Source: a virus | Lineage: Duplodnaviria; Heunggongvirae; Uroviricota; Caudoviricetes | Direction: 5' to 3' (one strand) | Virus record (IMG/VR): IMGVR_UViG_2565956724_000008 | Coordinates: 1-47,980 of that record | Length of the DNA stretch: 47,980 bases | Shown here: one piece after another, positions 16,044-33,293 of the stretch | Layout: each line of letters starts with the position of its first letter | Numbering within the stretch: position 1 is the first letter of the stretch | Program-made: the position numbers and the translations under genes | The notes under the pieces: model-generated | What the model was told of the DNA's origin: nothing | Database searches by the model: none | The model's input: the letters and a program-made list of their open reading frames with translations, nothing else

Positions 16044-16246
16044 TGAAGACCTTTGCGCTACAGGGCGACACGCTCGACGCCATTTGTGTCCGGTATTACG
16101 GGCGCACTGAGGGCGTGGTTGAGACCGTGCTCGCCGCAAATCCGGGACTGGCTGAACTGGGTGCGGTGTTGCCGCACGGCACCGCCGTCGAACTGCCCGA
16201 CGTTCAGACCGCGCCCGTGGCTGAAACTGTCAATCTGTGGGAGTAA
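16043..16246 (+). CDS. X: tail protein X
   Basis: Start placed at MKTFALQGD (ATG 16043, overlapping the L stop), giving 67 aa as in P2 X. Confidence 0.8.
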   Translation: MKTFALQGDTLDAICVRYYGRTEGVVETVLAANPGLAELGAVLPHGTAVELPDVQTAPVAETVNLWE

Positions 16247-16249
16247 CGC

Positions 16250-16531
16250 ATGACAGCAGAAGAAAAAAGCGTCCTGTCGCTTTTCATGATTGGGGTGCTG
16301 ATTGTTGTCGGCAAGGTGCTTGCCGGTGGTGAACCCATCACCCCGCGTCTGTTTATCGGGCGCATGTTGCTCGGTGGTTTTGTCTCGATGGTTGCCGGTG
16401 TTGTTCTGGTGCAGTTTCCTGACCTGTCACTGCCTGCGGTGTGCGGTATCGGCTCCATGCTGGGTATCGCCGGTTATCAGGTGATTGAGATTGCCATTCA
16501 GCGCCGTTTTAAGGGCAGGGGGAAACAGTAA
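16250..16531 (+). CDS. Y: holin Y
   Basis: 93 aa; hydrophobic transmembrane segments; first gene of the lysis cassette as in P2. Confidence 0.8.
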   Translation: MTAEEKSVLSLFMIGVLIVVGKVLAGGEPITPRLFIGRMLLGGFVSMVAGVVLVQFPDLSLPAVCGIGSMLGIAGYQVIEIAIQRRFKGRGKQ

Positions 16532-17028
16532 TGCCGGTAATTAACACGCATCAGAATATCGCGGCCTTTCTCGACATGCTGGCCGTGTCCGAAGGGACGG
16601 CGAATCATCCGCTGACGAAAAACCGGGGCTATGACGTGATAGTCACCGGACTGGACGGGAAGCCGGAAATTTTCACTGACTACAGTGACCACCCGTTCGC
16701 GCATGGCCGACCGGCGAAGGTGTTTAACCGTCGCGGTGAAAAATCCACGGCCTCCGGTCGCTATCAGCAGCTTTACCTGTTCTGGCCGCACTACCGCAAA
16801 CAGCTTGCCCTGCCGGATTTCAGTCCGTTGTCACAGGACAGGCTCGCCATTCAGTTGATCCGCGAACGCGGTGCACTGGATGACATCCGGGCGGGACGCA
16901 TTGAGCGCGCTATTTCACGCTGTCGCAATATCTGGGCGTCCCTGCCGGGTGCCGGTTACGGTCAGCGTGAGCATTCACTGGAAAAACTGGTCACCGTCTG
17001 GCGTACCGCCGGCGGTGTACCAGCTTAA
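16531..17028 (+). CDS. K: endolysin K
   Basis: 165 aa as in P2 K; follows the holin. Confidence 0.8.
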   Translation: MPVINTHQNIAAFLDMLAVSEGTANHPLTKNRGYDVIVTGLDGKPEIFTDYSDHPFAHGRPAKVFNRRGEKSTASGRYQQLYLFWPHYRKQLALPDFSPLSQDRLAIQLIRERGALDDIRAGRIERAISRCRNIWASLPGAGYGQREHSLEKLVTVWRTAGGVPA

Positions 17029-17042
17029 ACGGAGTAAACACC

Positions 17043-17468
17043 ATGAAGAAATTATCCCTTTCACTGATGCTGAATGTGTCGCTGGCGCTGATGCTGGCAC
17101 TGTCCCTGATTTACCCGCAGAGCGTGGCCGTCAATTTTGTCGCCGCCTGGGCGATTCTGGCGACGGTTATCTGTGTGGTTGCCGGTGGTGTCGGCGTGTA
17201 TGCCACTGAGTATGTGCTGGAACGCTACGGGCGGGAGCTGCCACCGGAATCGCTGGCCGTGAAGATTGTCACGTCGCTGTTTTTGCAGCCGGTGCCGTGG
17301 CGCAGGCGGGCGGCGGCTCTGGTAGTGATGGTGGCGACGTTTATCTCGCTGGTCGCTGCCGGGTGGATTTTTACCGCGCTGATTTATCTTGTGGCGTCGC
17401 TGTTTTTCCGGCTGATACGTAAAGCCTGTCGTCAGCGTCTTGAGGGGCGGGAACTATGTCAAAGCTGA
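17043..17468 (+). CDS. lysA: lysis-timing membrane protein LysA
   Basis: 141 aa, multiple hydrophobic helices; P2 lysA position. Confidence 0.75.
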   Translation: MKKLSLSLMLNVSLALMLALSLIYPQSVAVNFVAAWAILATVICVVAGGVGVYATEYVLERYGRELPPESLAVKIVTSLFLQPVPWRRRAAALVVMVATFISLVAAGWIFTALIYLVASLFFRLIRKACRQRLEGRELCQS

Positions 17469-17881
17469 TGATTGTGCTGGTCGTGTTGTTATCGCTGGCG
17501 GTGACCGGTCTGTTTCTGGTGAAACACAAAAATGCCAGCCTGCGCGCCTCGCTGGACAGGGCGAATAACGTCGCCAGTGAACAGCAGACGACCATCACCA
17601 TGCTGAAAAATCAGCTTCATGTTGCCATCACCAGGGCAGACAAAAACGAGCTGGCGCAGGTGGCACTGCGTCAGGAACTGGAGAACGCGGCGAAGCGTGA
17701 AGCACAGCGCGAGAAAACCATCACGAGGTTACTGAATGAAAACGAAGATTTTCGCCGCTGGTACGGCGCTGGCCTGCCTGATGCTGTGCGCCGGTTGCAC
17801 CAGCGCCCGGCCTGCACCGACGCCAGTGATTGTCGCCAACGCCTGCCCGAAAGTGAGCCTTTGCCCGATGCCGGGCAGTGA
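17456..17881 (+). CDS. lysB: i-spanin (Rz-like) LysB
   Basis: 141 aa; N-terminal transmembrane helix followed by a charged coiled-coil-like region. Confidence 0.75.
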   Translation: MSKLMIVLVVLLSLAVTGLFLVKHKNASLRASLDRANNVASEQQTTITMLKNQLHVAITRADKNELAQVALRQELENAAKREAQREKTITRLLNENEDFRRWYGAGLPDAVRRLHQRPACTDASDCRQRLPESEPLPDAGQ

Positions 17882-18026
17882 CCCGGAGACGAACGGCGAT
17901 TTAAGTGCCGATATCCGACAGCTTGAGAACGCGCTGGCACGCTGTGCCAGCCAGGTAAAAATGATTAAACACTGTCAGGACGAAAACGATGCTCAAACCC
18001 GACAGCCTGCGCAGGGCGCTGACTGA
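17736..18026 (+). CDS. lysC: o-spanin (Rz1-like lipoprotein) LysC, embedded in/overlapping lysB
   Basis: 96 aa; signal peptide with lipobox LCAGC, proline-rich; sits in the +1 frame over the lysB 3' end. Confidence 0.7.
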   Translation: MKTKIFAAGTALACLMLCAGCTSARPAPTPVIVANACPKVSLCPMPGSDPETNGDLSADIRQLENALARCASQVKMIKHCQDENDAQTRQPAQGAD

Positions 18027-18456
18027 TGCCGTCACGGTGCTGAAAACCAGTCCCGAGATGCTGCGGATATTCGTGGATAACGGGAGTATTGCCTCCACGC
18101 TGGCGACGTCGTTGTCATTCGAAAAGCGTTACACGCTCAATGTGATTGTGACCGACTTTACCGGTGATTTTGACCTGCTCATCGTGCCGGTGCTGGCGTG
18201 GCTGCGGGAAAATCAGCCCGACATCATGACCACCGATGAAGGCCAGAAAAAGGGCTTCACGTTTTATGCGGACATCAACAATGACAGCAGCTTTGATATC
18301 AGCATCAGCCTGATGCTGACCGAGCGCACGCTGGTCAGTGAGGTGGACGGCGCGCTGCATGTGAAGAATATCCCGGAACCTCCGCCGCCGGAGCCGGTCA
18401 CCCGCCCGGTGGAGCTGTATATCAATGGCGAACTGGTGAGCAAGTGGGATGAATGA
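17989..18456 (+). CDS. R: tail completion protein R
   Basis: 155 aa as in P2 R. Confidence 0.8.
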   Translation: MLKPDSLRRALTDAVTVLKTSPEMLRIFVDNGSIASTLATSLSFEKRYTLNVIVTDFTGDFDLLIVPVLAWLRENQPDIMTTDEGQKKGFTFYADINNDSSFDISISLMLTERTLVSEVDGALHVKNIPEPPPPEPVTRPVELYINGELVSKWDE

Positions 18457-18907
18457 GTTTAAGCGTTTTGAAGACCGGCTGACCGGACTGATTGAGTCGC
18501 TGTCACCGTCAGGGCGTCGGCGACTGGCGGTAGATATTGCGAAGAAGCTGCGCCAGCGCCAGCAGCAGCGAATTAAATTACAAAAAGCCCCGGATGGTAC
18601 GCCGTATGTACCGAGAAAAAACCAACCAGTACGAAATAAGAAAGGCCGGATAAAGCGGGAAATGTTTGTGAAATTACGCACTAACCGGTTTATGAAAGCA
18701 ACAGGTAGCGAGAGTGCGGCGGTGGTGGCGTTTGCCAGCGGAGTACAACGAATTGCGCGAGTACATCAATTAGGGCTTAGGGATAAGCCGGGGCGTAATA
18801 GTGCTGTGGTGGAATATCCTGTTCGTGAGTTATTTGGTTTTGACAAGGAATCTATACAATTGATAGAAAGGGAGTTATTAGTGATTCTATCGAAAGATGT
18901 TATATGA
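18449..18907 (+). CDS. S: tail completion protein S
   Basis: 152 aa (P2 S about 150 aa); precedes the cargo slot and V. Confidence 0.8.
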   Translation: MNEFKRFEDRLTGLIESLSPSGRRRLAVDIAKKLRQRQQQRIKLQKAPDGTPYVPRKNQPVRNKKGRIKREMFVKLRTNRFMKATGSESAAVVAFASGVQRIARVHQLGLRDKPGRNSAVVEYPVRELFGFDKESIQLIERELLVILSKDVI

Positions 18908-19659
18908 GACGGGTGTTTGTGGATAAAAAGTTTTCCATTTTGAGAAAAAGAGTAAAGCATTCTCAAAAGAAAGTTATGGATTGTATTATTGCTGACCATA
19001 ATGCTGATATATGTGTGTTATGCGGGAGTTCTGACGATATTACTCGTGAGCACATTATTCCTCAGTGGGCCTTTGAGTCAAATGCTGAAAAATCTTTAAT
19101 TAATAAAAAGAATAATCAGTCAACTCATTACATTAAAGCCACTGTACCAGCATGCAGAGTGTGCAATTCTGATTTGCTGGGAGTGTTTGAGTATAACCTG
19201 AAGAAATTTCTTACGGAAAAGAGAGGGGAGGAGTTAACAGATTATGAGTATGATTGCATCATATGGTGGTTGCAATACATGGGTTTTAAGTTGCAATTAA
19301 TGGATTTGCGGAACCGCTTTCTCAGGTATAAAGGTGGTGATTATATCCCGTTTCTTGCAAACTTCCCGGTTGCAATGTTTTGGGGGAATGTCGATACGAC
19401 GCCGGGGGATGTCTTCAGGATTATACGAAAATCGCGACGCAATCTGATGTCGAAATGGAAGGATAAAAAACATAATTCTTTGATGGTTTTTGAAACATCA
19501 AACAAGAGTTTTCATTTCTTTCATAAGGTTGATGAATTTATTTTTATTGAAATTCCTCAGGTTAAGAAGGCGTTTTTCTTCTTTTTTAATAAAGAATTTG
19601 ACAGCCATGATTTAGCTCATGAGGAGTGTATGAAGATTATAGAGAAGTGCTACAACTAA
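18904..19659 (+). CDS. HNH-motif protein, AT-rich cargo gene in the S-V slot (P2 orf30 position)
   Basis: 251 aa; CVLCG...REHIIPQW...CRVCN fits a CxxC/H/N/CxxC HNH nuclease motif; visibly AT-rich against GC-rich neighbours; start overlaps the S stop. Confidence 0.6.
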   Translation: MRRVFVDKKFSILRKRVKHSQKKVMDCIIADHNADICVLCGSSDDITREHIIPQWAFESNAEKSLINKKNNQSTHYIKATVPACRVCNSDLLGVFEYNLKKFLTEKRGEELTDYEYDCIIWWLQYMGFKLQLMDLRNRFLRYKGGDYIPFLANFPVAMFWGNVDTTPGDVFRIIRKSRRNLMSKWKDKKHNSLMVFETSNKSFHFFHKVDEFIFIEIPQVKKAFFFFFNKEFDSHDLAHEECMKIIEKCYN

Positions 19660-19736
19660 TATTTGTTATGTTGTGTCACAGCTGACAGAACCCTCCATGA
19701 TTGCTGCTGGTATCGTCCAGCGGCATCCTTCCCGTT

Positions 19737-20372
19737 ATGAACACTCTCGCAAATATTCAGGAACTCGCGCGCGCACTGCGCAATATGATTCGCACCGGCG
19801 TTATCGTCGAAACCGACCTTAACGCCGGTCGCTGCCGTGTGCAGACCGGCGGCATGTGCACCGACTGGCTTCAGTGGTTGACCCATCGTGCCGGGCGTTC
19901 GCGTACATGGTGGGCACCTTCCGTGGGGGAACAGGTGCTGATTCTGGCCGTGGGCGGTGAACTTGACACGGCGTTTGTTCTGCCGGGGATTTATTCCGGT
20001 GATAACCCCGCGCCGTCTGCGTCGGCGGATGCCCTGTATATCCGTTTCCCTGACGGGGCGGTGATTGAGTATGAACCCGAAACCAGTGCACTCATGGTAA
20101 GCGGAATTAAAACGGCCAGCGTGACGGCTTCTGATTCTGTTACTGCCACGGTGCCGGTGGTCATGGTGAAAGCATCAACCCGCATCACCATGGACGCACC
20201 GGAGGTGGTCTGCACCAACAGGCTGATTACCGACACGCTGGAAGTGCAGAAGGGCGGGACGATGCGCGGCAACATTGAACACACCGGCGGTGAACTCTCA
20301 TCAAACGGTAAGGTACTGCATACCCATAAACACCCCGGCGACAGCGGCGGCACAACCGGGAGTCCTCTATGA
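19737..20372 (+). CDS. V: baseplate spike/assembly protein V
   Basis: Start placed at MNTLANIQEL (ATG 19737), giving 211 aa as in P2 V. Confidence 0.85.
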   Translation: MNTLANIQELARALRNMIRTGVIVETDLNAGRCRVQTGGMCTDWLQWLTHRAGRSRTWWAPSVGEQVLILAVGGELDTAFVLPGIYSGDNPAPSASADALYIRFPDGAVIEYEPETSALMVSGIKTASVTASDSVTATVPVVMVKASTRITMDAPEVVCTNRLITDTLEVQKGGTMRGNIEHTGGELSSNGKVLHTHKHPGDSGGTTGSPL

Positions 20373-20716
20373 CAGCGCGTTATCTCGGAATGAATCGCAG
20401 TGATGGCCTGACTGTCACTGACCTTGAGCATATCAGCCAGAGTATCGGCGATATCCTGCGCACACCGGTCGGCTCACGGGTGATGCGTCGTGATTACGGC
20501 TCGTTGCTGGCGTCAATGATTGACCAGCCGCAGACCCCGGCGCTTGAGTTGCAGATTAAGGTCGCCTGTTACATGGCCGTGCTGAAATGGGAACCCCGCG
20601 TCACCCTGTCATCCGTCACCACGGCGCGCAGTTTTGACGGGCGAATGACGGTCACGTTAACCGGCCAGCACAACGACACCGGCCAGCCACTTTCGTTAAC
20701 CATCCCTGTGAGTTGA
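20369..20716 (+). CDS. W: baseplate protein W (gp25-like)
   Basis: 115 aa as in P2 W. Confidence 0.85.
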   Translation: MTARYLGMNRSDGLTVTDLEHISQSIGDILRTPVGSRVMRRDYGSLLASMIDQPQTPALELQIKVACYMAVLKWEPRVTLSSVTTARSFDGRMTVTLTGQHNDTGQPLSLTIPVS

Positions 20717-20720
20717 AACC

Positions 20721-21629
20721 ATGCCGATTATCGACCTGAACCAGCTACCCGCACCGGATGTGGTCGAGGAGCTGGACTTTGAAACCATTCTTGCCGAACG
20801 CAAGGCGACACTGATTTCCCTTTACCCGGAAGACCAGCAGGAGGCGGTCGCCCGTACCCTGACGCTGGAATCTGAGCCTCTCGTCAAACTGCTGGAGGAA
20901 AATGCTTATCGTGAGCTTATCTGGCGTCAGCGTGTGAATGAGGCTGCACGGGCGGTGATGCTGGCCTGTGCCGCCGGTAATGACCTTGATGTGATTGGTG
21001 CCAATTACAACACCACACGCCTGATTATCACCCCGGCAGATGATTCGACCCTCCCGCCGACACCGGCCGTGATGGAATCTGACACCGATTATCGTCTGCG
21101 TATTCAGCAGGCGTTTGAAGGTTTAAGCGTCGCCGGGTCGGTGGGGGCCTATCAGTATCATGGTCGAAGTGCCGACGGGCGTGTCGCAGATATCTCTGTC
21201 ACCAGTCCTTCTCCGGCCTGCGTCACCATCTCTGTGCTGTCACGTGAAAATAACGGTGTGGCATCCGAAGACCTGCTGGCGGTGGTGCGCAACGCCCTTA
21301 ATGGTGAGGACGTCAGACCGGTGGCCGACCGTGTGACCGTGCAGTCTGCCGTCATCGTTGAATACCAGATAAATGCCACGCTTTACCTTTACCCTGGCCC
21401 CGAAAGCGAACCCATTCGCGCTGCCGCCGTGAAAAAACTGGAAGCGTATATCACGGCACAGCACCGGCTGGGGCGCGACATCCGACTGTCTGCCATTTAT
21501 GCCGCTTTGCATGTGGAAGGCGTGCAGCGTGTCGAACTGGCTGCACCGCTGGCCGACATCGTGCTCAACAATACGCAGGCGTCTTTCTGTACCGAATACA
21601 GCGTCGTGACCGGAGGCTCGGATGAGTGA
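20721..21629 (+). CDS. J: baseplate protein J
   Basis: 302 aa as in P2 J. Confidence 0.85.
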   Translation: MPIIDLNQLPAPDVVEELDFETILAERKATLISLYPEDQQEAVARTLTLESEPLVKLLEENAYRELIWRQRVNEAARAVMLACAAGNDLDVIGANYNTTRLIITPADDSTLPPTPAVMESDTDYRLRIQQAFEGLSVAGSVGAYQYHGRSADGRVADISVTSPSPACVTISVLSRENNGVASEDLLAVVRNALNGEDVRPVADRVTVQSAVIVEYQINATLYLYPGPESEPIRAAAVKKLEAYITAQHRLGRDIRLSAIYAALHVEGVQRVELAAPLADIVLNNTQASFCTEYSVVTGGSDE

Positions 21630-22233
21630 TTCGCGACTGCTGCCGACCGGCTCATCACCGCTTGAAGTCGCTGCCGCAAAAGCCTGTGCGGAAATTGAAA
21701 AAACGCCGGTCAGTATTCGTGAGCTGTGGAACCCGGACACCTGCCCGGCAAATCTGCTGCCGTGGCTGGCGTGGTCATTTTCGGTTGACCGCTGGGATGA
21801 TAAGTGGCCGGAAGCGACAAAACGCGCTGTTATCCGCGATGCGTATTTCATTCACTGCCATAAGGGCACTATAGGCGCAATCCGGCGTGTGGTGGAGCCG
21901 CTCGGCTATCTGATTGAGGTGAGGGAGTGGTGGCAGCTCAACGAGGAGCCGGGGACGTTCCGCATCGTTGTTGGCGTGCTTGAGCAGGGTATTACCGAGG
22001 AAATGTATCAGGAGCTGGAGCGCCTCGTTGCTGATGCAAAACCGGCAAGCCGCCATCTGACGGGACTGGCTATCAGTTTAAGTACAACCGGCAACATTTT
22101 TGCCGGTGCGGGATGCTATCACGGTGACGCCCTGACGGTTTATCCCTACACCCCGGAGGCCATTATTGTCGGAGGGGATTATTTCCCGGCCTCGGCCATT
22201 CATTTAATTGATAACCTGAGAGTAAACGCATGA
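21622..22233 (+). CDS. I: baseplate/tail protein I
   Basis: 203 aa in the P2 I position immediately upstream of the tail fibre gene (P2 I is shorter). Confidence 0.75.
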   Translation: MSDSRLLPTGSSPLEVAAAKACAEIEKTPVSIRELWNPDTCPANLLPWLAWSFSVDRWDDKWPEATKRAVIRDAYFIHCHKGTIGAIRRVVEPLGYLIEVREWWQLNEEPGTFRIVVGVLEQGITEEMYQELERLVADAKPASRHLTGLAISLSTTGNIFAGAGCYHGDALTVYPYTPEAIIVGGDYFPASAIHLIDNLRVNA

Positions 22234-23537
22234 CAGTGAAATACTACGCCATTCTGACTAATCAGGGCGCAGCACGGCTGGCTAACGCGACGATGCTCGG
22301 CAGTAAGCTGAATCTGACGCAAATGGCCGTTGGTGATGCGAATGGTGTCTTGCCGACACCAGACCCGGCACAGACAAAACTGATTAACCAGAAACGCATC
22401 GCGCCGCTGAATCTTCTGAGTGTTGACCCGAACAACCAGAGCCAGATTATTGCGGAGCAAATCATCCCTGAGAACGAGGGCGGATTCTGGATCCGTGAGA
22501 TTGGGCTTTATGATGATGAAGGCGTACTCATTGCGGTGGCGAACTGCCCGGAAACGTACAAACCGCAGTTGCAGGAAGGCAGTGGTCGTACCCAGACTAT
22601 CCGCATGATTCTGGTTGTCACGAATACCGAAGCTATTACGCTGAAAATCGACCCGTCGGTGGTACTGGCGACCCGTAAATACGTGGATGATGAAGTCCTG
22701 GAATTAAGGCTGTATGTGGATGACCAGATGAGAAACCACATTGCCGCACAGGATCCTCATACCCAGTATGCACAGAAATATAATCCGACATTTACCGGAG
22801 AACCAAAAGCGCCGACGCCTGCCGCAGGGAATAACACCACGCGGATTGCGACCACTGAGTTTGTTCAGGCCGCTATTACCGCTCTGATTAACGGTGCGCC
22901 AGCCACGCTGGACACACTGAAAGAAATTGCCGCAGCCATTAACAATGACCCGAAATTCAGTACCACCATTAACAATGCGCTGTCAGGTAAGCAGCCACTG
23001 GATGAGACGCTGACTCATTTGAGTGGAAAGGATGTTGCCGGTCTTCTCGCATACCTTGGTTTGGGAGAAGGCTCTGCATTACCTGTTGGTGTGCCTGTTC
23101 CATGGCCTTCAGCCACACCGCCAACAGGCTGGCTGAAATGCAACGGTGCGGCTTTTTCTGCTGAAGAATACCCGGAACTGGCAAAGGCTTATCCGACAAA
23201 TAAATTGCCTGATTTACGTGGTGAGTTTATTCGTGGCTGGGATGACGGGCGCGGTATTGATGCAGGACGTGTTTTATTGAGCATTCAGACAGGGATGCTG
23301 GAAAAACACCGCCATATTGTTGTTGCCAATGATGGTTACGACACAAAAGATGAATGGGAACTGGCTACGATTTTCAAAAAGACATACACACAAGGACGGG
23401 GACTTGATGCCGCAAATACAGGAGGGAGTCTGATCCCATCACCGACACTTCATTCACGAGGGAGTATCGGTAATACTGGCGGGAGTGAAACCCGTCCACG
23501 AAATATTGCATTTAACTATATCGTGAGGGCTGCATAA
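22230..23537 (+). CDS. H: tail fibre protein H (constant N-terminal part plus variable tip Sv)
   Basis: 435 aa; N-terminal region resembles P2 H (MAVGD..., ELGLYDD...LIAVAN); C-terminal ~155 aa has a Mu/P1 S-like tail-collar pattern (PVPWPSATPPTGWLKCNGAAFS...). The constant/variable boundary falls at the hix-like site. Confidence 0.85.
   Translation: MTVKYYAILTNQGAARLANATMLGSKLNLTQMAVGDANGVLPTPDPAQTKLINQKRIAPLNLLSVDPNNQSQIIAEQIIPENEGGFWIREIGLYDDEGVLIAVANCPETYKPQLQEGSGRTQTIRMILVVTNTEAITLKIDPSVVLATRKYVDDEVLELRLYVDDQMRNHIAAQDPHTQYAQKYNPTFTGEPKAPTPAAGNNTTRIATTEFVQAAITALINGAPATLDTLKEIAAAINNDPKFSTTINNALSGKQPLDETLTHLSGKDVAGLLAYLGLGEGSALPVGVPVPWPSATPPTGWLKCNGAAFSAEEYPELAKAYPTNKLPDLRGEFIRGWDDGRGIDAGRVLLSIQTGMLEKHRHIVVANDGYDTKDEWELATIFKKTYTQGRGLDAANTGGSLIPSPTLHSRGSIGNTGGSETRPRNIAFNYIVRAA
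23044..23069. other. hix/gix-like 26-bp invertase crossover site (left)
   Basis: TTCTCGCATACC-TT-GGTTTGGGAGAA: two 12-bp imperfectly palindromic half-sites around a 2-bp core, close to Hin hixL (TTCTTGAAAACCAAGGTTTTTGATAA, recalled); arm symmetry ends 1 bp after it. Confidence 0.6.
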
Positions 23538-24139
23538 TGGATAACGCCGTATTAAATAGCGAGCTTATTGCCACGAAGGCGGGGAATATTACCGTCTATA
23601 ACTATGATGGTAAAACTCGGGAATATATTTCTACTTCAAATGAATATCTTGCCATTGGTGTCGGTATCCCTGCATATTCCTGTCTGGATGAACCTGGTAT
23701 ACATAAGGCGGGTTATGCTATCTGCCGTTCGATGGATTTAAACTCATGGGAATATGTGCCAGACCATCGCGGTGAAATCGTCTATAACACCGAAACGGGA
23801 GACGCCAAAGAAATCACAGCTCCGGGTGATTATCCTGAAAATACAACCACTATCGCCCCGTTAACGCCATTCGATAAATGGGATGGTAAGAAATGGGTGA
23901 CCGATACTGAGGCACAGCATAGCGCCGCAGTAGACGCGGCAGAAGCACTGCGTCAGTCACTGATTGATACTGCAATGGCTTCCATCAGTCTGATTCAACT
24001 GAAATTGCAGGCCGGGCGGAAGCTGACGCAGGCAGAAACCACCCGACTTAACGCTGTGCTGGATTACATTGACGCGGTGACGGCAACAGATACGAGCACC
24101 GCGCCGGATGTCATCTGGCCTGAACTGCCGGAGGCGTAG
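23537..24139 (+). CDS. G: tail fibre assembly protein (P2 G / Mu U-like)
   Basis: 200 aa immediately downstream of H; C-terminus ...APDVIWPELPEA is typical of tail-fibre-assembly chaperones. Confidence 0.75.
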   Translation: MDNAVLNSELIATKAGNITVYNYDGKTREYISTSNEYLAIGVGIPAYSCLDEPGIHKAGYAICRSMDLNSWEYVPDHRGEIVYNTETGDAKEITAPGDYPENTTTIAPLTPFDKWDGKKWVTDTEAQHSAAVDAAEALRQSLIDTAMASISLIQLKLQAGRKLTQAETTRLNAVLDYIDAVTATDTSTAPDVIWPELPEA

Positions 24140-24551
24140 GCCATTCAATATCTGGCGCACCGGAAGTATCGACCAGTTCCAGTGCGTCCAGGTAATCCAG
24201 CCACAAATTATATTGCGCCAGTTCGTCACCTTTCAGACGACCAATAGCCGCTTTACCAGGCCATTGTTTACTGTTCATATAATCGTTGGCCTGATTAATC
24301 AATTGCTGCTTCTCCAGTTCGGCTGCAGCAATTTGTTCCTCATGTGTTGGTGGTGGAATTTCGGACCATGCAGGAAAACCATTTTCTCCAGCGATACGGA
24401 TTTTTCCTTTCGGCGGTAATCCGGAAAACTCAATATACACTTGCTCATCAACTTCAACAGCATCATCTGGCCATGAGTCAGCTTGAGTGTAATCCTCTTT
24501 CATCTCCAGCGGATAGAAAGAGTTTGTAGTCGCGGAATATATGTAATTCAT
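24111..24551 (-). CDS. alternative tail fibre assembly protein (Mu U'-like)
   Basis: 146 aa, convergent with G and overlapping its 3' end by 29 bp; C-terminus ...APDIEWPTPPA resembles that of G; GGAG ribosome-binding site upstream. Confidence 0.7.
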   Translation of the reverse strand: MNYIYSATTNSFYPLEMKEDYTQADSWPDDAVEVDEQVYIEFSGLPPKGKIRIAGENGFPAWSEIPPPTHEEQIAAAELEKQQLINQANDYMNSKQWPGKAAIGRLKGDELAQYNLWLDYLDALELVDTSGAPDIEWPTPPAVQAR

Positions 24552-24572
24552 TTTTCACTCCATATAGCTAAA

Positions 24573-25751
24573 TTAACAGCCTAACGCTAAAAATGAAGCG
24601 CCGAGGCCAGGATTACTGGCTCTGGATATAAATTTAACCGGGTCGGGACTAAAACCTGCACAGGCAATATAACCAACAGCCCCGCTATCTGGTGTATAGT
24701 CTTGTGAGACCAAAACACGCAGACATCTGTTTGGAAATGCAATTGGGAAATGGGTTACTACATCCTGTGCAATGCCTGGAGCGCCGATTGAGCCCCACTG
24801 AAGAATAAAACCTGATGGTAATTTTTGATATCCAGTACCTGAAACAGAAAGCGTGAAGCTACCCATATCAGGTATCTGATTCGCCCCTGTCCCTACATTC
24901 CTTTTAGCCGCTTCTCCCAAACCAAGGTATGCGAGAAGACCGGCAACATCCTTTCCACTCAAATGAGTCAGCGTCTCATCCAGTGGCTGCTTACCTGACA
25001 GCGCATTGTTAATGGTGGTACTGAATTTCGGGTCATTGTTAATGGCTGCGGCAATTTCTTTCAGTGTGTCCAGCGTGGCTGGCGCACCGTTAATCAGAGC
25101 GGTAATAGCGGCCTGAACAAACTCAGTGGTCGCAATCCGCGTGGTGTTATTCCCTGCGGCAGGCGTCGGCGCTTTTGGTTCTCCGGTAAATGTCGGATTA
25201 TATTTCTGTGCATACTGGGTATGAGGATCCTGTGCGGCAATGTGGTTTCTCATCTGGTCATCCACATACAGCCTTAATTCCAGGACTTCATCATCCACGT
25301 ATTTACGGGTCGCCAGTACCACCGACGGGTCGATTTTCAGCGTAATAGCTTCGGTATTCGTGACAACCAGAATCATGCGGATAGTCTGGGTACGACCACT
25401 GCCTTCCTGCAACTGCGGTTTGTACGTTTCCGGGCAGTTCGCCACCGCAATGAGTACGCCTTCATCATCATAAAGCCCAATCTCACGGATCCAGAATCCG
25501 CCCTCGTTCTCAGGGATGATTTGCTCCGCAATAATCTGGCTCTGGTTGTTCGGGTCAACACTCAGAAGATTCAGCGGCGCGATGCGTTTCTGGTTAATCA
25601 GTTTTGTCTGTGCCGGGTCTGGTGTCGGCAAGACACCATTCGCATCACCAACGGCCATTTGCGTCAGATTCAGCTTACTGCCGAGCATCGTCGCGTTAGC
25701 CAGCCGTGCTGCGCCCTGATTAGTCAGAATGGCGTAGTATTTCACTGTCAT
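24573..25751 (-). CDS. H: tail fibre protein H with alternative variable tip (Sv')
   Basis: 392 aa; N-terminal ~280 aa identical to the left-arm H, C-terminal ~112 aa unrelated to Sv; the switch occurs exactly at the right hix-like site. Confidence 0.8.
24912..24937. other. hix/gix-like 26-bp invertase crossover site (right, inverted)
   Basis: Reverse complement of the site at 23044..23069. Confidence 0.6.
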
Positions 25752-26359
25752 GCGTTTACTCTCAGGTTATCAATTAAATGAATGGCCGAGGCCGGGAAAT
25801 AATCCCCTCCGACAATAATGGCCTCCGGGGTGTAGGGATAAACCGTCAGGGCGTCACCGTGATAGCATCCCGCACCGGCAAAAATGTTGCCGGTTGTACT
25901 TAAACTGATAGCCAGTCCCGTCAGATGGCGGCTTGCCGGTTTTGCATCAGCAACGAGGCGCTCCAGCTCCTGATACATTTCCTCGGTAATACCCTGCTCA
26001 AGCACGCCAACAACGATGCGGAACGTCCCCGGCTCCTCGTTGAGCTGCCACCACTCCCTCACCTCAATCAGATAGCCGAGCGGCTCCACCACACGCCGGA
26101 TTGCGCCTATAGTGCCCTTATGGCAGTGAATGAAATACGCATCGCGGATAACAGCGCGTTTTGTCGCTTCCGGCCACTTATCATCCCAGCGGTCAACCGA
26201 AAATGACCACGCCAGCCACGGCAGCAGATTTGCCGGGCAGGTGTCCGGGTTCCACAGCTCACGAATACTGACCGGCGTTTTTTCAATTTCCGCACAGGCT
26301 TTTGCGGCAGCGACTTCAAGCGGTGATGAGCCGGTCGGCAGCAGTCGCGAATCACTCAT
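25748..26359 (-). CDS. I: baseplate/tail protein I (mirror copy)
   Basis: Mirror of 21622..22233; identical translation. Confidence 0.75.
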
Positions 26360-27260
26360 CCGAGCCTCCGGTCACGACGCTGTATTCGGTACAGAAAGAC
26401 GCCTGCGTATTGTTGAGCACGATGTCGGCCAGCGGTGCAGCCAGTTCGACACGCTGCACGCCTTCCACATGCAAAGCGGCATAAATGGCAGACAGTCGGA
26501 TGTCGCGCCCCAGCCGGTGCTGTGCCGTGATATACGCTTCCAGTTTTTTCACGGCGGCAGCGCGAATGGGTTCGCTTTCGGGGCCAGGGTAAAGGTAAAG
26601 CGTGGCATTTATCTGGTATTCAACGATGACGGCAGACTGCACGGTCACACGGTCGGCCACCGGTCTGACGTCCTCACCATTAAGGGCGTTGCGCACCACC
26701 GCCAGCAGGTCTTCGGATGCCACACCGTTATTTTCACGTGACAGCACAGAGATGGTGACGCAGGCCGGAGAAGGACTGGTGACAGAGATATCTGCGACAC
26801 GCCCGTCGGCACTTCGACCATGATACTGATAGGCCCCCACCGACCCGGCGACGCTTAAACCTTCAAACGCCTGCTGAATACGCAGACGATAATCGGTGTC
26901 AGATTCCATCACGGCCGGTGTCGGCGGGAGGGTCGAATCATCTGCCGGGGTGATAATCAGGCGTGTGGTGTTGTAATTGGCACCAATCACATCAAGGTCA
27001 TTACCGGCGGCACAGGCCAGCATCACCGCCCGTGCAGCCTCATTCACACGCTGACGCCAGATAAGCTCACGATAAGCATTTTCCTCCAGCAGTTTGACGA
27101 GAGGCTCAGATTCCAGCGTCAGGGTACGGGCGACCGCCTCCTGCTGGTCTTCCGGGTAAAGGGAAATCAGTGTCGCCTTGCGTTCGGCAAGAATGGTTTC
27201 AAAGTCCAGCTCCTCGACCACATCCGGTGCGGGTAGCTGGTTCAGGTCGATAATCGGCAT
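26352..27260 (-). CDS. J: baseplate protein J (mirror copy)
   Basis: Mirror of 20721..21629; identical translation. Confidence 0.85.
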   Translation of the reverse strand: MPIIDLNQLPAPDVVEELDFETILAERKATLISLYPEDQQEAVARTLTLESEPLVKLLEENAYRELIWRQRVNEAARAVMLACAAGNDLDVIGANYNTTRLIITPADDSTLPPTPAVMESDTDYRLRIQQAFEGLSVAGSVGAYQYHGRSADGRVADISVTSPSPACVTISVLSRENNGVASEDLLAVVRNALNGEDVRPVADRVTVQSAVIVEYQINATLYLYPGPESEPIRAAAVKKLEAYITAQHRLGRDIRLSAIYAALHVEGVQRVELAAPLADIVLNNTQASFCTEYSVVTGGSDE

Positions 27261-27264
27261 GGTT

Positions 27265-27612
27265 TCAACTCACAGGGATGGTTAACGAAAGTGGCTGGCC
27301 GGTGTCGTTGTGCTGGCCGGTTAACGTGACCGTCATTCGCCCGTCAAAACTGCGCGCCGTGGTGACGGATGACAGGGTGACGCGGGGTTCCCATTTCAGC
27401 ACGGCCATGTAACAGGCGACCTTAATCTGCAACTCAAGCGCCGGGGTCTGCGGCTGGTCAATCATTGACGCCAGCAACGAGCCGTAATCACGACGCATCA
27501 CCCGTGAGCCGACCGGTGTGCGCAGGATATCGCCGATACTCTGGCTGATATGCTCAAGGTCAGTGACAGTCAGGCCATCACTGCGATTCATTCCGAGATA
27601 ACGCGCTGTCAT
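27265..27612 (-). CDS. W: baseplate protein W (mirror copy)
   Basis: Mirror of 20369..20716; identical translation. Confidence 0.85.
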   Translation of the reverse strand: MTARYLGMNRSDGLTVTDLEHISQSIGDILRTPVGSRVMRRDYGSLLASMIDQPQTPALELQIKVACYMAVLKWEPRVTLSSVTTARSFDGRMTVTLTGQHNDTGQPLSLTIPVS

Positions 27613-28244
27613 AGAGGACTCCCGGTTGTGCCGCCGCTGTCGCCGGGGTGTTTATGGGTATGCAGTACCTTACCGTTTGATGAGAGTTCACCGCCGGTGT
27701 GTTCAATGTTGCCGCGCATCGTCCCGCCCTTCTGCACTTCCAGCGTGTCGGTAATCAGCCTGTTGGTGCAGACCACCTCCGGTGCGTCCATGGTGATGCG
27801 GGTTGATGCTTTCACCATGACCACCGGCACCGTGGCAGTAACAGAATCAGAAGCCGTCACGCTGGCCGTTTTAATTCCGCTTACCATGAGTGCACTGGTT
27901 TCGGGTTCATACTCAATCACCGCCCCGTCAGGGAAACGGATATACAGGGCATCCGCCGACGCAGACGGCGCGGGGTTATCACCGGAATAAATCCCCGGCA
28001 GAACAAACGCCGTGTCAAGTTCACCGCCCACGGCCAGAATCAGCACCTGTTCCCCCACGGAAGGTGCCCACCATGTACGCGAACGCCCGGCACGATGGGT
28101 CAACCACTGAAGCCAGTCGGTGCACATGCCGCCGGTCTGCACACGGCAGCGACCGGCGTTAAGGTCGGTTTCGACGATAACGCCGGTGCGAATCATATTG
28201 CGCAGTGCGCGCGCGAGTTCCTGAATATTTGCGAGAGTGTTCAT
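27609..28244 (-). CDS. V: baseplate spike/assembly protein V (mirror copy)
   Basis: Mirror of 19737..20372. Confidence 0.85.
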   Translation of the reverse strand: MNTLANIQELARALRNMIRTGVIVETDLNAGRCRVQTGGMCTDWLQWLTHRAGRSRTWWAPSVGEQVLILAVGGELDTAFVLPGIYSGDNPAPSASADALYIRFPDGAVIEYEPETSALMVSGIKTASVTASDSVTATVPVVMVKASTRITMDAPEVVCTNRLITDTLEVQKGGTMRGNIEHTGGELSSNGKVLHTHKHPGDSGGTTGSPL

Positions 28245-28321
28245 AACGGGAAGGATGCCGCTGGACGATACCAGCAGCAATCATGGAGGGTTCTGTCAGC
28301 TGTGACACAACATAACAAATA

Positions 28322-29077
28322 TTAGTTGTAGCACTTCTCTATAATCTTCATACACTCCTCATGAGCTAAATCATGGCTGTCAAATTCTTTATTAAAAAAG
28401 AAGAAAAACGCCTTCTTAACCTGAGGAATTTCAATAAAAATAAATTCATCAACCTTATGAAAGAAATGAAAACTCTTGTTTGATGTTTCAAAAACCATCA
28501 AAGAATTATGTTTTTTATCCTTCCATTTCGACATCAGATTGCGTCGCGATTTTCGTATAATCCTGAAGACATCCCCCGGCGTCGTATCGACATTCCCCCA
28601 AAACATTGCAACCGGGAAGTTTGCAAGAAACGGGATATAATCACCACCTTTATACCTGAGAAAGCGGTTCCGCAAATCCATTAATTGCAACTTAAAACCC
28701 ATGTATTGCAACCACCATATGATGCAATCATACTCATAATCTGTTAACTCCTCCCCTCTCTTTTCCGTAAGAAATTTCTTCAGGTTATACTCAAACACTC
28801 CCAGCAAATCAGAATTGCACACTCTGCATGCTGGTACAGTGGCTTTAATGTAATGAGTTGACTGATTATTCTTTTTATTAATTAAAGATTTTTCAGCATT
28901 TGACTCAAAGGCCCACTGAGGAATAATGTGCTCACGAGTAATATCGTCAGAACTCCCGCATAACACACATATATCAGCATTATGGTCAGCAATAATACAA
29001 TCCATAACTTTCTTTTGAGAATGCTTTACTCTTTTTCTCAAAATGGAAAACTTTTTATCCACAAACACCCGTCTCAT
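28322..29077 (-). CDS. HNH-motif AT-rich cargo protein (mirror copy)
   Basis: Mirror of 18904..19659; identical translation. Confidence 0.6.
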   Translation of the reverse strand: MRRVFVDKKFSILRKRVKHSQKKVMDCIIADHNADICVLCGSSDDITREHIIPQWAFESNAEKSLINKKNNQSTHYIKATVPACRVCNSDLLGVFEYNLKKFLTEKRGEELTDYEYDCIIWWLQYMGFKLQLMDLRNRFLRYKGGDYIPFLANFPVAMFWGNVDTTPGDVFRIIRKSRRNLMSKWKDKKHNSLMVFETSNKSFHFFHKVDEFIFIEIPQVKKAFFFFFNKEFDSHDLAHEECMKIIEKCYN

Positions 29078-29532
29078 ATAACATCTTTCGATAGAATCAC
29101 TAATAACTCCCTTTCTATCAATTGTATAGATTCCTTGTCAAAACCAAATAACTCACGAACAGGATATTCCACCACAGCACTATTACGCCCCGGCTTATCC
29201 CTAAGCCCTAATTGATGTACTCGCGCAATTCGTTGTACTCCGCTGGCAAACGCCACCACCGCCGCACTCTCGCTACCTGTTGCTTTCATAAACCGGTTAG
29301 TGCGTAATTTCACAAACATTTCCCGCTTTATCCGGCCTTTCTTATTTCGTACTGGTTGGTTTTTTCTCGGTACATACGGCGTACCATCCGGGGCTTTTTG
29401 TAATTTAATTCGCTGCTGCTGGCGCTGGCGCAGCTTCTTCGCAATATCTACCGCCAGTCGCCGACGCCCTGACGGTGACAGCGACTCAATCAGTCCGGTC
29501 AGCCGGTCTTCAAAACGCTTAAACTCATTCAT
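29074..29532 (-). CDS. S: tail completion protein S (mirror copy)
   Basis: Mirror of 18449..18907. Confidence 0.8.
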   Translation of the reverse strand: MNEFKRFEDRLTGLIESLSPSGRRRLAVDIAKKLRQRQQQRIKLQKAPDGTPYVPRKNQPVRNKKGRIKREMFVKLRTNRFMKATGSESAAVVAFASGVQRIARVHQLGLRDKPGRNSAVVEYPVRELFGFDKESIQLIERELLVILSKDVI

Positions 29533-29992
29533 CCCACTTGCTCACCAGTTCGCCATTGATATACAGCTCCACCGGGCGGGTGACCGGCTCCGGCGGCGGA
29601 GGTTCCGGGATATTCTTCACATGCAGCGCGCCGTCCACCTCACTGACCAGCGTGCGCTCGGTCAGCATCAGGCTGATGCTGATATCAAAGCTGCTGTCAT
29701 TGTTGATGTCCGCATAAAACGTGAAGCCCTTTTTCTGGCCTTCATCGGTGGTCATGATGTCGGGCTGATTTTCCCGCAGCCACGCCAGCACCGGCACGAT
29801 GAGCAGGTCAAAATCACCGGTAAAGTCGGTCACAATCACATTGAGCGTGTAACGCTTTTCGAATGACAACGACGTCGCCAGCGTGGAGGCAATACTCCCG
29901 TTATCCACGAATATCCGCAGCATCTCGGGACTGGTTTTCAGCACCGTGACGGCATCAGTCAGCGCCCTGCGCAGGCTGTCGGGTTTGAGCAT
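29525..29992 (-). CDS. R: tail completion protein R (mirror copy)
   Basis: Mirror of 17989..18456. Confidence 0.8.
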   Translation of the reverse strand: MLKPDSLRRALTDAVTVLKTSPEMLRIFVDNGSIASTLATSLSFEKRYTLNVIVTDFTGDFDLLIVPVLAWLRENQPDIMTTDEGQKKGFTFYADINNDSSFDISISLMLTERTLVSEVDGALHVKNIPEPPPPEPVTRPVELYINGELVSKWDE

Positions 29993-30245
29993 CGTTTTCG
30001 TCCTGACAGTGTTTAATCATTTTTACCTGGCTGGCACAGCGTGCCAGCGCGTTCTCAAGCTGTCGGATATCGGCACTTAAATCGCCGTTCGTCTCCGGGT
30101 CACTGCCCGGCATCGGGCAAAGGCTCACTTTCGGGCAGGCGTTGGCGACAATCACTGGCGTCGGTGCAGGCCGGGCGCTGGTGCAACCGGCGCACAGCAT
30201 CAGGCAGGCCAGCGCCGTACCAGCGGCGAAAATCTTCGTTTTCAT
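29955..30245 (-). CDS. lysC: o-spanin LysC (mirror copy)
   Basis: Mirror of 17736..18026. Confidence 0.7.
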   Translation of the reverse strand: MKTKIFAAGTALACLMLCAGCTSARPAPTPVIVANACPKVSLCPMPGSDPETNGDLSADIRQLENALARCASQVKMIKHCQDENDAQTRQPAQGAD

Positions 30246-30525
30246 TCAGTAACCTCGTGATGGTTTTCTCGCGCTGTGCTTCACGCTTCGCCGCGTTCTC
30301 CAGTTCCTGACGCAGTGCCACCTGCGCCAGCTCGTTTTTGTCTGCCCTGGTGATGGCAACATGAAGCTGATTTTTCAGCATGGTGATGGTCGTCTGCTGT
30401 TCACTGGCGACGTTATTCGCCCTGTCCAGCGAGGCGCGCAGGCTGGCATTTTTGTGTTTCACCAGAAACAGACCGGTCACCGCCAGCGATAACAACACGA
30501 CCAGCACAATCATCAGCTTTGACAT
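30100..30525 (-). CDS. lysB: i-spanin LysB (mirror copy)
   Basis: Mirror of 17456..17881. Confidence 0.75.
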   Translation of the reverse strand: MSKLMIVLVVLLSLAVTGLFLVKHKNASLRASLDRANNVASEQQTTITMLKNQLHVAITRADKNELAQVALRQELENAAKREAQREKTITRLLNENEDFRRWYGAGLPDAVRRLHQRPACTDASDCRQRLPESEPLPDAGQ

Positions 30526-30938
30526 AGTTCCCGCCCCTCAAGACGCTGACGACAGGCTTTACGTATCAGCCGGAAAAACAGCGACGCCACAAGATAAATC
30601 AGCGCGGTAAAAATCCACCCGGCAGCGACCAGCGAGATAAACGTCGCCACCATCACTACCAGAGCCGCCGCCCGCCTGCGCCACGGCACCGGCTGCAAAA
30701 ACAGCGACGTGACAATCTTCACGGCCAGCGATTCCGGTGGCAGCTCCCGCCCGTAGCGTTCCAGCACATACTCAGTGGCATACACGCCGACACCACCGGC
30801 AACCACACAGATAACCGTCGCCAGAATCGCCCAGGCGGCGACAAAATTGACGGCCACGCTCTGCGGGTAAATCAGGGACAGTGCCAGCATCAGCGCCAGC
30901 GACACATTCAGCATCAGTGAAAGGGATAATTTCTTCAT
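30513..30938 (-). CDS. lysA: LysA membrane protein (mirror copy)
   Basis: Mirror of 17043..17468. Confidence 0.75.
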   Translation of the reverse strand: MKKLSLSLMLNVSLALMLALSLIYPQSVAVNFVAAWAILATVICVVAGGVGVYATEYVLERYGRELPPESLAVKIVTSLFLQPVPWRRRAAALVVMVATFISLVAAGWIFTALIYLVASLFFRLIRKACRQRLEGRELCQS

Positions 30939-30952
30939 GGTGTTTACTCCGT

Positions 30953-31450
30953 TTAAGCTGGTACACCGCCGGCGGTACGCCAGACGGTGACCAGTTTTTC
31001 CAGTGAATGCTCACGCTGACCGTAACCGGCACCCGGCAGGGACGCCCAGATATTGCGACAGCGTGAAATAGCGCGCTCAATGCGTCCCGCCCGGATGTCA
31101 TCCAGTGCACCGCGTTCGCGGATCAACTGAATGGCGAGCCTGTCCTGTGACAACGGACTGAAATCCGGCAGGGCAAGCTGTTTGCGGTAGTGCGGCCAGA
31201 ACAGGTAAAGCTGCTGATAGCGACCGGAGGCCGTGGATTTTTCACCGCGACGGTTAAACACCTTCGCCGGTCGGCCATGCGCGAACGGGTGGTCACTGTA
31301 GTCAGTGAAAATTTCCGGCTTCCCGTCCAGTCCGGTGACTATCACGTCATAGCCCCGGTTTTTCGTCAGCGGATGATTCGCCGTCCCTTCGGACACGGCC
31401 AGCATGTCGAGAAAGGCCGCGATATTCTGATGCGTGTTAATTACCGGCAT
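30953..31450 (-). CDS. K: endolysin K (mirror copy)
   Basis: Mirror of 16531..17028. Confidence 0.8.
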   Translation of the reverse strand: MPVINTHQNIAAFLDMLAVSEGTANHPLTKNRGYDVIVTGLDGKPEIFTDYSDHPFAHGRPAKVFNRRGEKSTASGRYQQLYLFWPHYRKQLALPDFSPLSQDRLAIQLIRERGALDDIRAGRIERAISRCRNIWASLPGAGYGQREHSLEKLVTVWRTAGGVPA

Positions 31451-31731
31451 TACTGTTTCCCCCTGCCCTTAAAACGGCGCTGAATGGCAATCTCAATCAC
31501 CTGATAACCGGCGATACCCAGCATGGAGCCGATACCGCACACCGCAGGCAGTGACAGGTCAGGAAACTGCACCAGAACAACACCGGCAACCATCGAGACA
31601 AAACCACCGAGCAACATGCGCCCGATAAACAGACGCGGGGTGATGGGTTCACCACCGGCAAGCACCTTGCCGACAACAATCAGCACCCCAATCATGAAAA
31701 GCGACAGGACGCTTTTTTCTTCTGCTGTCAT
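31450..31731 (-). CDS. Y: holin Y (mirror copy)
   Basis: Mirror of 16250..16531. Confidence 0.8.
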   Translation of the reverse strand: MTAEEKSVLSLFMIGVLIVVGKVLAGGEPITPRLFIGRMLLGGFVSMVAGVVLVQFPDLSLPAVCGIGSMLGIAGYQVIEIAIQRRFKGRGKQ

Positions 31732-31734
31732 GCG

Positions 31735-31938
31735 TTACTCCCACAGATTGACAGTTTCAGCCACGGGCGCGGTCTGAACGTCGGGCAGTTCGACGGCGGT
31801 GCCGTGCGGCAACACCGCACCCAGTTCAGCCAGTCCCGGATTTGCGGCGAGCACGGTCTCAACCACGCCCTCAGTGCGCCCGTAATACCGGACACAAATG
31901 GCGTCGAGCGTGTCGCCCTGTAGCGCAAAGGTCTTCAT
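31735..31938 (-). CDS. X: tail protein X (mirror copy)
   Basis: Mirror of 16043..16246. Confidence 0.8.
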   Translation of the reverse strand: MKTFALQGDTLDAICVRYYGRTEGVVETVLAANPGLAELGAVLPHGTAVELPDVQTAPVAETVNLWE

Positions 31939-32447
31939 CAGATTTGACTCACGATGCAGCGCGGCTTGCCCTGGATGCGCGCCACTGCCCAGCGCATATC
32001 CCGCCACAGCTCATCAATGGTGCTGTCAATGCTGTCGGCCTTCTTGTCGCCTTTTGCACTGGCATCCACACCGCGATAACGTTCATAAAGCGACGCGGTC
32101 GCCATCGCACACACGGCGCGCTCGTAGTAAAAAACTTTGATGCTTTCACCGTCGATGTCGTCCGCCGGGACGTCCGCCAGACGCGTAAAACCGGCGGCAA
32201 TTTTCTGTTCGCGGTACTCGTACAGCTCCGCATTCGTCTCCGCCATGCCTGACTTGATGGCCTCACGCAGACGGGCGGGGGCGACGGTCTGCTCAAGGCG
32301 CATACGTTCCCGGACGCGCTTCGGGTCGATATCGGGAAAAAAGAACGTGTTTTTAATCACCGGCTCGTCGCCTGCCGGTTGCGGGATGACCACCGTACCC
32401 TCACCGGACACGGGAGCCTCCTTTCGCGGAATAATCAGCGTCATCAT
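31938..32447 (-). CDS. L: head completion protein L (mirror copy)
   Basis: Mirror of 15534..16043. Confidence 0.8.
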   Translation of the reverse strand: MMTLIIPRKEAPVSGEGTVVIPQPAGDEPVIKNTFFFPDIDPKRVRERMRLEQTVAPARLREAIKSGMAETNAELYEYREQKIAAGFTRLADVPADDIDGESIKVFYYERAVCAMATASLYERYRGVDASAKGDKKADSIDSTIDELWRDMRWAVARIQGKPRCIVSQI

Positions 32448-32546
32448 GACTACCTCTGAAAAGTCGGGCGGTGGACGCCGGTGCAGTGTCAGGTGATTCA
32501 CCCTCACTGACCGGCGTGCCGCCCTGGCGCGGGGCGCATTCGGTTG

Positions 32547-33290: not shown

Positions 33291-33293
33291 CGG

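Follow-up and report, generated by a model that had tools for sequence, protein, structure and literature searches.

The G segment of Mu, with its invertase Gin, and the C segment of P1, with Cin, share one organization. A constant N-terminal part of the tail fibre is joined to alternative tips, the tips are served by convergent tip-chaperone pairs, and the invertase gene adjoins a segment bounded by 26-bp sites with a 2-bp core. The P segment of e14 in Escherichia coli K-12 belongs with PinE and displays pix sites and the gene pairs stfE/tfaE and stfP/tfaP. For the P2-like prophages of both E. coli and Salmonella, invertase-driven tail-fibre switching is likewise already well described. Fels-2 of Salmonella LT2 and its P2-like relatives have in common the gene order J-I-H-chaperone / chaperone'-tip' / invertase-FI-FII. 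A Gin-family invertase is likewise found in the P2-like phages pro483, S164, 'P2' of O157:H43 T22 and SEN8 and in prophages of EPEC E2348/69 and EC958. Measurements on cultures document inversion in such prophages (PMC4272514), and a table of their 26-bp sites is available (PMC4134206).

The locus described here is found in a stretch of 47,980 nt, referred to as the window, and appears in biological terms to be an ordinary member of this group. At 23044-24937 a cassette had been proposed on the model of Mu G, P1 C and e14 P, and the genes, the tips and the alignment of the sites all bear this out. The constant N-terminus of the fibre is encoded outside the segment and reads in frame into alternative C-terminal tips encoded within it. 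One tip has a Collar domain and the other a Gp53-like_C domain; each is followed by its own assembly chaperone gene of the Caudo_TAP type, and the two modules are convergent (Table 1). The segment is 1.87 kb long, compared with 3.0 kb in Mu and 4.2 kb in P1.

Table 1. Features of the window, with positions counted from its first nucleotide
Feature	Position	Strand	Description
Left palindrome arm	1..23070	+	Identical to reverse complement of 24911-47980
Host gene yegR, left arm	1-318		Followed by left two-thirds of P2-like prophage
H, switch state A	22230..23537	+	435 aa; constant first 280 aa (Phage_tail_fib N-terminal domain) and last 155 aa Collar-domain tip (Sv)
H-side 26-bp site	23044..23069	+	TTCTCGCATACC TT GGTTTGGGAGAA; inside H reading frame
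Outer half-site, H side	23044-23055		
Core dinucleotide, H side	23056-23057		
Inner half-site, H side	23058-23069		
Invertible segment interior	23071..24910	.	Two tips and two chaperone genes; unique; both orientations in complete genomes
Chaperone for tip A	23537..24139	+	200 aa, tfaE-like, Caudo_TAP
Chaperone for tip B	24111..24551	-	146 aa, Caudo_TAP
H'	24573-25751	-	392 aa; first 280 aa common with H
Alternative tip Sv'	24573..24923	-	About 112 variable aa, Gp53-like_C domain
Mirror arm	24911..47980	-	Occupies place of true right flank (invertase, FI, FII, E, T, U, D, ogr, attR)
Right-hand site as written	24912..24937	-	Exact mirrored copy of H-side site

The 435-aa H protein is the same as that of E. 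coli PE144. The two H reading frames had been predicted to change tip at the crossover site, and they do: beyond the common 280 residues, H and H' diverge immediately past it. In nature the Sv' sequence stands as a promoterless fragment in state A and is joined to the H constant part in state B. The layout of the cassette is the same as that of the e14 P segment, and the start of tip A is 92% and chaperone A, at the DNA level, 88% identical to e14 stfE/tfaE. The second module of e14 differs from the gp53-like tip and 146-aa chaperone found here, and e14 is a defective lambdoid element, whereas the element that carries the present cassette is an intact-looking P2-like prophage. Relative to the Fels-2 group, the only differences are allelic ones in tips and sites. 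A P2-type baseplate was correctly recognized in the original prediction, which described a Mu-type switch grafted onto it; the combination is not new, as it is present in Fels-2, pro483, S164 and others (PMC4272514; PMC4134206).

The crossover sites are of a known type. In an alignment check set beforehand against sites from annotated records, the H-side site matches e14 pixL at 23/26 positions, P1 cixR at 21/26 and Mu gix at 17/26, and its inner half and core are identical to both pixL and pixR (14/14). In natural loci the two sites of the cassette match each other at 21/26 positions; the inner half and the core are identical and the outer halves differ. On the invertase side the natural site equals e14 pixR at 26/26 positions: in real genomes its outer half, at the place of 24926-24937, reads CGTTTATGAAAA and leads into the invertase gene. 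Two identical 26-bp boundary sequences in inverted orientation had been reported for the window, and both are present. Their identity, however, is not a property of the locus, because the right-hand copy arises from mirroring. No further crossover sites were found inside the segment, of the kind that form a multi-inversion shufflon in one EPEC P2-like prophage.

What sets the window apart is a mirror symmetry that extends over its full length. A self-comparison of the whole window showed that the two arms, each of 23,070 nt, form a perfect inverted repeat with 0 mismatches, so that only 23071..24910 is unique and the 26-bp repeat is merely the inner end of the arms. In the natural locus, unlike Mu and P1, the inverted repeat is the 26-bp site only, and the H-side site matches the Mu and P1 sites at 17-21/26 positions. 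Beyond yegR the left arm carries the prophage genes int, C, cox, B, A, a SIR2 accessory gene, Q, P, O, N, M, L, X, the lysis genes, R, S, a 251-aa open reading frame, V, W, J, I and the constant part of H. The P2 gene order is thus present from int to H; the genes from FI to ogr, which are present in relatives, are absent, and this absence is attributed to an assembly artefact. FI-D DNA compared with the window gave no match. The palindrome had gone unnoticed in the earlier reading of the sequence. A replicative head-to-head phage dimer was considered as its source and rejected because host yegR lies in both arms.

Comparison with relatives shows what normally lies to the right of the segment. 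The E. coli PE144 cassette is 99.8% identical and continues past the segment with TTCTCCCAAACC AA CGTTTATGAAAA; after the site come a protein with Resolvase and HTH_7 domains and then sheath, tube, E, T, U and D. The neighbours are the same in KW21, where the segment is in the flipped state. In complete E. coli genomes with the cassette, a gene for a 197-aa serine invertase of the Gin/Pin type lies close to the right-hand end of the segment, at a distance of about 55 bp (less than 60 bp), and is followed by FI to D. This invertase, WP_000905107.1, matches Mu Gin (PDB 3UJ3) with E = 1e-94; its identity is 78% to P1 Cin and 84% to the Fels-2 invertase. All of the natural copies inspected have this gene as the immediate right-hand neighbour of the segment. 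The identical 392-aa H' is encoded at 8 distinct places and the invertase stands alongside in 7 of them. The sole exception, NCBI scaffold KI538795.1, has 100% identity to the window.

The window departs from the real right flank exactly past the core dinucleotide. Its left junction is the H junction of PE144, and its right junction is the reverse complement of the H junction of KW21. By this comparison the two junctions are the H-side junctions of the two switch states. Complete E. coli genomes hold the segment in both states, state A in approximately 43 and state B in 39, and study-mates GPEC1209 and GPEC1210 are among the genomes counted for the two orientations. The palindromic layout is found in 0 of 5,426 complete E. 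coli genomes. The best matches among them occur in both orientations and all end at 66% of the query, which corresponds to one arm plus the segment.

Hairpin or fold-back artefacts at invertible DNA have perfect mirrored arms set on the inversion site and lack the true flank. These sequence hallmarks are present here: exact mirrored arms, a pivot at the inversion site, extension into host DNA and absence from finished genomes. It has been reported that actively flipping prophage tail-fibre segments yield spurious contigs; artefactual duplications were warned of in that study and hairpin artefacts were screened for (PMC4134206). In a literature search on palindromic or hairpin contigs, this was the only paper bearing on such a class of artefact. 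Structure and comparison together suggest that the window is an artefact and that one of its two arms is to be regarded as an assembly duplicate. Very probably, what lies next to yegR is a P2-like prophage with an ordinary switch of the Pin/Gin type, and the window represents a chimeric assembly path.

In such a switch the invertase would bind the two 26-bp sites, probably with the help of a Fis-bound enhancer in the 5' end of its own gene, cut at the central TT/AA dinucleotide and flip about 1.87 kb. The tip joined to the 280-aa constant part of H would then be either the Collar-domain one, with the 200-aa chaperone, or the gp53-like one, with the 146-aa chaperone. An assembler could have come from H across the state-A junction into the segment, passed out of it at the state-B H junction read as reverse complement, and retraced prophage and host flank backwards. 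The outcome would be a 23,070-nt perfect mirror that omits the invertase and the tail genes. A path of H-constant, segment and H-constant in reverse complement is most simply explained by reads holding both orientations. The chimeric junctions suggest that both were present in the sequenced DNA of the strain, and that a single path holds the two H-side junctions is most simply read as an indirect sign of switching in the culture that was sequenced.

The state-B junction could alternatively stem from a second, near-identical P2-like prophage in the same genome, with the segment itself in a single orientation and the two loci merged by the assembler. Related sequence occurs at a median of 2 places in E. 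coli genomes that match the region, which gives this proposal some basis. It requires identity across the constant part of H and the Sv' tip, however, and high-frequency switching in culture has been documented for such loci (PMC4134206; PMC4272514). There is only a slim chance that a second prophage is the source, and even then the window would still be an artefact with an invertase next door.

The original prediction stated that the window has no serine recombinase, and this is correct: a tblastn search of the window with a Gin-type invertase gave no match even at E<=10. Three causes had been offered, namely a trans-acting invertase, loss of the gene or misassembly. It is the last-listed of these that provides the answer. 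At the right-hand site the record doubles back on its own reverse complement, which is why the window is without an invertase. The other two causes find no support; every natural copy examined carries the adjacent gene. The missing invertase thus appears to be an artefact, and the strain's own gene is probably intact.

A true orphan cassette, with the adjacent gene lost and the segment either locked in one orientation or inverted in trans by a Pin-family enzyme encoded elsewhere in the genome, does have a precedent. Inversion in trans has been inferred for the Phi4 segment of EC958, whose invertase is truncated (PMC4134206). The window shows no such invertase, and the 14/14 agreement with e14 pix in inner half and core suggests that PinE-type enzymes could plausibly act on the sites. 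Nevertheless, an orphan cassette is very improbable. The gene is present in all close relatives, the fold-back fully accounts for its absence with mirrored sequence occupying its place, and a frozen segment would not provide both H-side junctions.

It has also to be asked whether the palindrome is real. It would then be a chromosomal inverted duplication of at least 23 kb, formed when H-side sites of sister chromosomes in opposite states were joined by the invertase or by template switching, with loss of the tail genes. The junction falls exactly at the crossover core, as in a recombinase product, and the public scaffold KI538795.1 (GCA_000495075.1) is continuous, with no N gap at the right end of the window; on the left, 8.9 kb of the scaffold precede the window. 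Against this stands the lack of the layout in the 5,426 complete genomes, and a 0-mismatch mirrored arm that includes host DNA is what is expected from an assembler walking back along one graph path. Another assembly of identical sequence, Logan contig SRR958580_4 (100% identical to the window), apparently has no read-through; by coordinate arithmetic only, it would end at about 23111, roughly 40 nt inside the segment, a point given little weight here. Gin/Hin-type invertases, moreover, strongly disfavour intermolecular reactions. A real inverted duplication is accordingly hard to credit. Its specific form, in which exchange between sister chromosomes catalysed by the invertase would create a real palindrome of 48 kb or longer, with a giant inverted duplication of host DNA and half a prophage and deletion of the tail genes, is harder still to credit.

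With regard to control of the switch, the enhancer and Fis steps proposed above are drawn by analogy from the Gin/Hin/Cin literature. The window does not contain such an enhancer. Its homologous region, judged by the annotated P1 cin enhancer (+19 to +90), shows conservation in both PE144 and KW21, although this is coding sequence, so that constraint confounds the comparison. Mean column identity in the alignment of this region is 88% over the first 120 nt of the invertase gene, a value subject to the same confounding by coding constraint.

The probable chimeric path calls for caution in the use of the draft scaffold KI538795.1, which seems to hold a mirrored duplicate of about 23 kb at the invertible segment. 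Such a duplicate would give rise to a false orphan switch and to duplicated prophage genes. The mirror is located within a 1.3-Mb public scaffold and not in a separate small contig.

The 47,980-nt window is a perfect palindrome. In a direct comparison, reverse-complementing 24911..47980 gave positions 1..23070 without a single mismatch; only 23071..24910 (1,840 nt) is unique. An inverted-repeat finder returned arms that reached the edge of the region supplied. Of a P2-like prophage, the arms carry the left two-thirds (int, C, cox, B, A, a SIR2 accessory gene, Q, P, O, N, M, L, X, lysis genes, R, S, V, W, J, I and H). Their outer ends hold the host gene yegR, and the mirror therefore reaches beyond phage DNA. 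The 26-bp inverted sites of the original prediction are present at both boundaries of the cassette, but they are merely the inner end of this 23,070-nt mirror.

The cassette itself has all the features that had been named: sites, tip switch, alternative tips and convergent chaperones. The first 280 residues, which form a P2-type Phage_tail_fib N-terminal domain, are common to the tail-fibre genes H and H'; the two diverge directly past the crossover site, so that both frames change tip there as proposed. The tips, which flank the two convergent Caudo_TAP chaperone genes, differ in domain, one being Collar and the other Gp53-like_C. A search for extra crossover sites within the segment found none. 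An 18-nt inverted repeat (89%) at the chaperone overlap, 24058-24075 / 24184-24201, is not a crossover site; it reflects the homologous C-terminal coding ends of the two chaperones, and a counterpart is also found in e14.

Coordinates of the cassette and accessory features in the window
Feature	Position	Strand	Basis or context
Crossover site TTCTCGCATACC-TT-GGTTTGGGAGAA	23044-23069	+	sequence match
Reverse complement of TTCTCGCATACC-TT-GGTTTGGGAGAA	24912-24937	-	sequence match
H gene, 435 aa	22230-23537	+	ORF
H' gene, 392 aa	24573-25751	-	ORF
Chaperone gene, Caudo_TAP	23537-24139	+	domain match
Chaperone gene, Caudo_TAP	24111-24551	-	domain match
SIR2_2-domain protein, 864 aa	6633-9227	-	domain match
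SIR2_2-domain protein, mirrored copy	38754-41348	+	
251-aa ORF	18904-19659	+	inserted between gpS and gpV
251-aa ORF, mirrored copy	28322-29077	-	

The same cassette is found in complete E. coli genomes. In PE144, where identity to the window cassette is 99.8%, TTCTCCCAAACC AA CGTTTATGAAAA comes directly after the segment and, ∼55 bp further on, a 197-aa 'recombinase family protein' and then tail sheath, tube, E, tape measure, U and D. The recombinase, a protein with Resolvase and HTH_7 domains, hits Mu Gin (PDB 3UJ3) at E = 1e-94; its identity is 78% with P1 Cin and 84% with the Fels-2 invertase. The natural inverted repeat is only 27 nt long, at 81%; the two sites have identical inner half-sites and core and different outer half-sites. 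In KW21 the segment is flipped; its chaperone proteins have the accessions seen in PE144, and the same invertase lies beside it. State A occurs in ∼43 complete E. coli genomes and the state-B H junction in 39, as expected for a freely flipping segment. GPEC1209 (state A) and GPEC1210 (state B), with the segment at 99.7% identity, show both states of the switch in nature; they are chicken isolates, apparently of one study to judge by strain names and consecutive accessions.

Comparison with these loci accounts for the window. Its left junction, H constant part into tip Sv, is the H-side junction of PE144 (state A), and its right junction, segment into mirrored arm, is the reverse complement of the KW21 H-side junction (state B); the window has no invertase-side junction, be it of state A or of state B. 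Departure from the true right flank comes exactly past the central AA dinucleotide, where only 15 nt are shared. Judged by typical k-mer lengths, this pivot would be too short for an assembler to cross without spanning reads, so the data must have included k-mers of the state-B junction. Most simply, both orientations were present in the sequenced culture; a second near-identical prophage supplying the state-B junction is less likely. The assembler would have followed an invalid path through the inversion bubble (H-constant, segment, reverse-complemented H-constant) and then run back along the prophage and the host flank. That the giant inverted duplication is real is most improbable. When a 2 kb arm, the segment and a 2 kb mirrored arm were searched against 5,426 complete E. 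coli genomes, none covered at least 80% of the query; the best matches, some state A and some state B, with GPEC1209 and GPEC1210 among them, all end at 66%, one arm plus segment.

The original prediction reported no invertase gene, and tblastn with a Gin-type query indeed gave no match in the window even at E<=10. That this marks a true orphan cassette is very unlikely. The identical 392-aa H' is present in many assemblies, and the invertase adjoins it in seven of the eight distinct places shown. The sole exception, scaffold KI538795.1 of GCA_000495075.1, has mirrored baseplate genes instead; it is 100% identical to the window across 13,179 nt, centre included, and the coordinates place the window at 8877-56856 in this 1.33-Mb scaffold. 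The missing invertase is thus very probably an assembly artefact: of the loss, trans action and misassembly that had been offered, the palindrome and the invertase-bearing flank in PE144 and KW21 favour the last. An independent assembly, Logan SRR958580 contig 4 (50,492 nt), is 100% identical to window 1-16429 and the host flank. By coordinate arithmetic it would stop ∼40 nt into the segment, consistent with the assembly graph branching at the switch. Beyond the right end of the window, KI538795.1 runs on into yegS without Ns (locus L034, 19227 onward), which makes the window an excerpt from a longer record; leftward, the mirror may extend past the window edge. Both ends of the window fall exactly on the yegR start codon (1-318 and 47663-47980).

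The cassette is real and of an ordinary, previously known kind. Fels-2 has the same annotated gene order (J-I-H-chaperone / chaperone'-tip' / invertase-FI-FII), near-identical invertases occur in the P2-like phages S164, pro483, 'P2' from O157:H43 and SEN8, and in e14 stfE/tfaE the tip A start is 92% and the tip A chaperone 88% identical. The predicted resemblance of the 26-bp sites to known invertase crossover sites holds for pix, cix and gix. With sites from annotated records aligned to the window H-side site, e14 pixL matches at 23/26 and pixR at 21/26 (inner half and core 14/14 in both), P1 cixR at 21/26, cixL at 18/26 and Mu gix at 17/26; in the natural locus, the site on the invertase side agrees with e14 pixR at 26/26. 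Inversion has been measured in P2-like prophages of EPEC cultures (PMC4272514). Work on the EC958 prophages tabulated 26-bp sites, reported that flipping tail-fibre segments give rise to spurious contigs and warned of artefactual duplications; it also inferred trans-inversion for a prophage whose invertase is truncated, and the trans proposal is therefore not new either (PMC4134206).

The part of the invertase gene that is homologous to the annotated P1 enhancer, which lies outside the window, is conserved in PE144 and KW21; as it is coding sequence, coding constraint may account for this. The anatomy, the sites, the adjoining invertase in relatives and both natural orientations are observed; the steps of the switch are drawn from Gin, Hin and Cin. 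The invertase would bind both sites, assemble with a Fis-bound enhancer, cut at the 2-bp core and undergo subunit rotation. Flipping ∼1.87 kb would join the H constant 280 aa to one tip or the other, with the matching chaperone co-expressed and the silent tip lacking a start of its own.

The 864-aa SIR2_2 protein probably serves as anti-phage defence cargo encoded by a single gene. Over ∼300 aa at the N-terminus it matches the PADLOC Aga_SIR2-PNTD1-PNTD2 / pAgo-associated SIR2 models (5e-59), and the gene, with a GC content of only 31-33%, lies between gpA and the portal gene, a P2 accessory slot that in other alleles of the prophage holds a reverse transcriptase, OLD-TOPRIM, SIR2+DUF87, HNH or DprA-like gene. 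The 251-aa ORF also has a lower GC content (∼44%) and no match in Pfam or PADLOC. In KW21 the gpS-gpV slot holds an 'ATP-binding protein', and this prophage lineage may thus have a second site of variable cargo.
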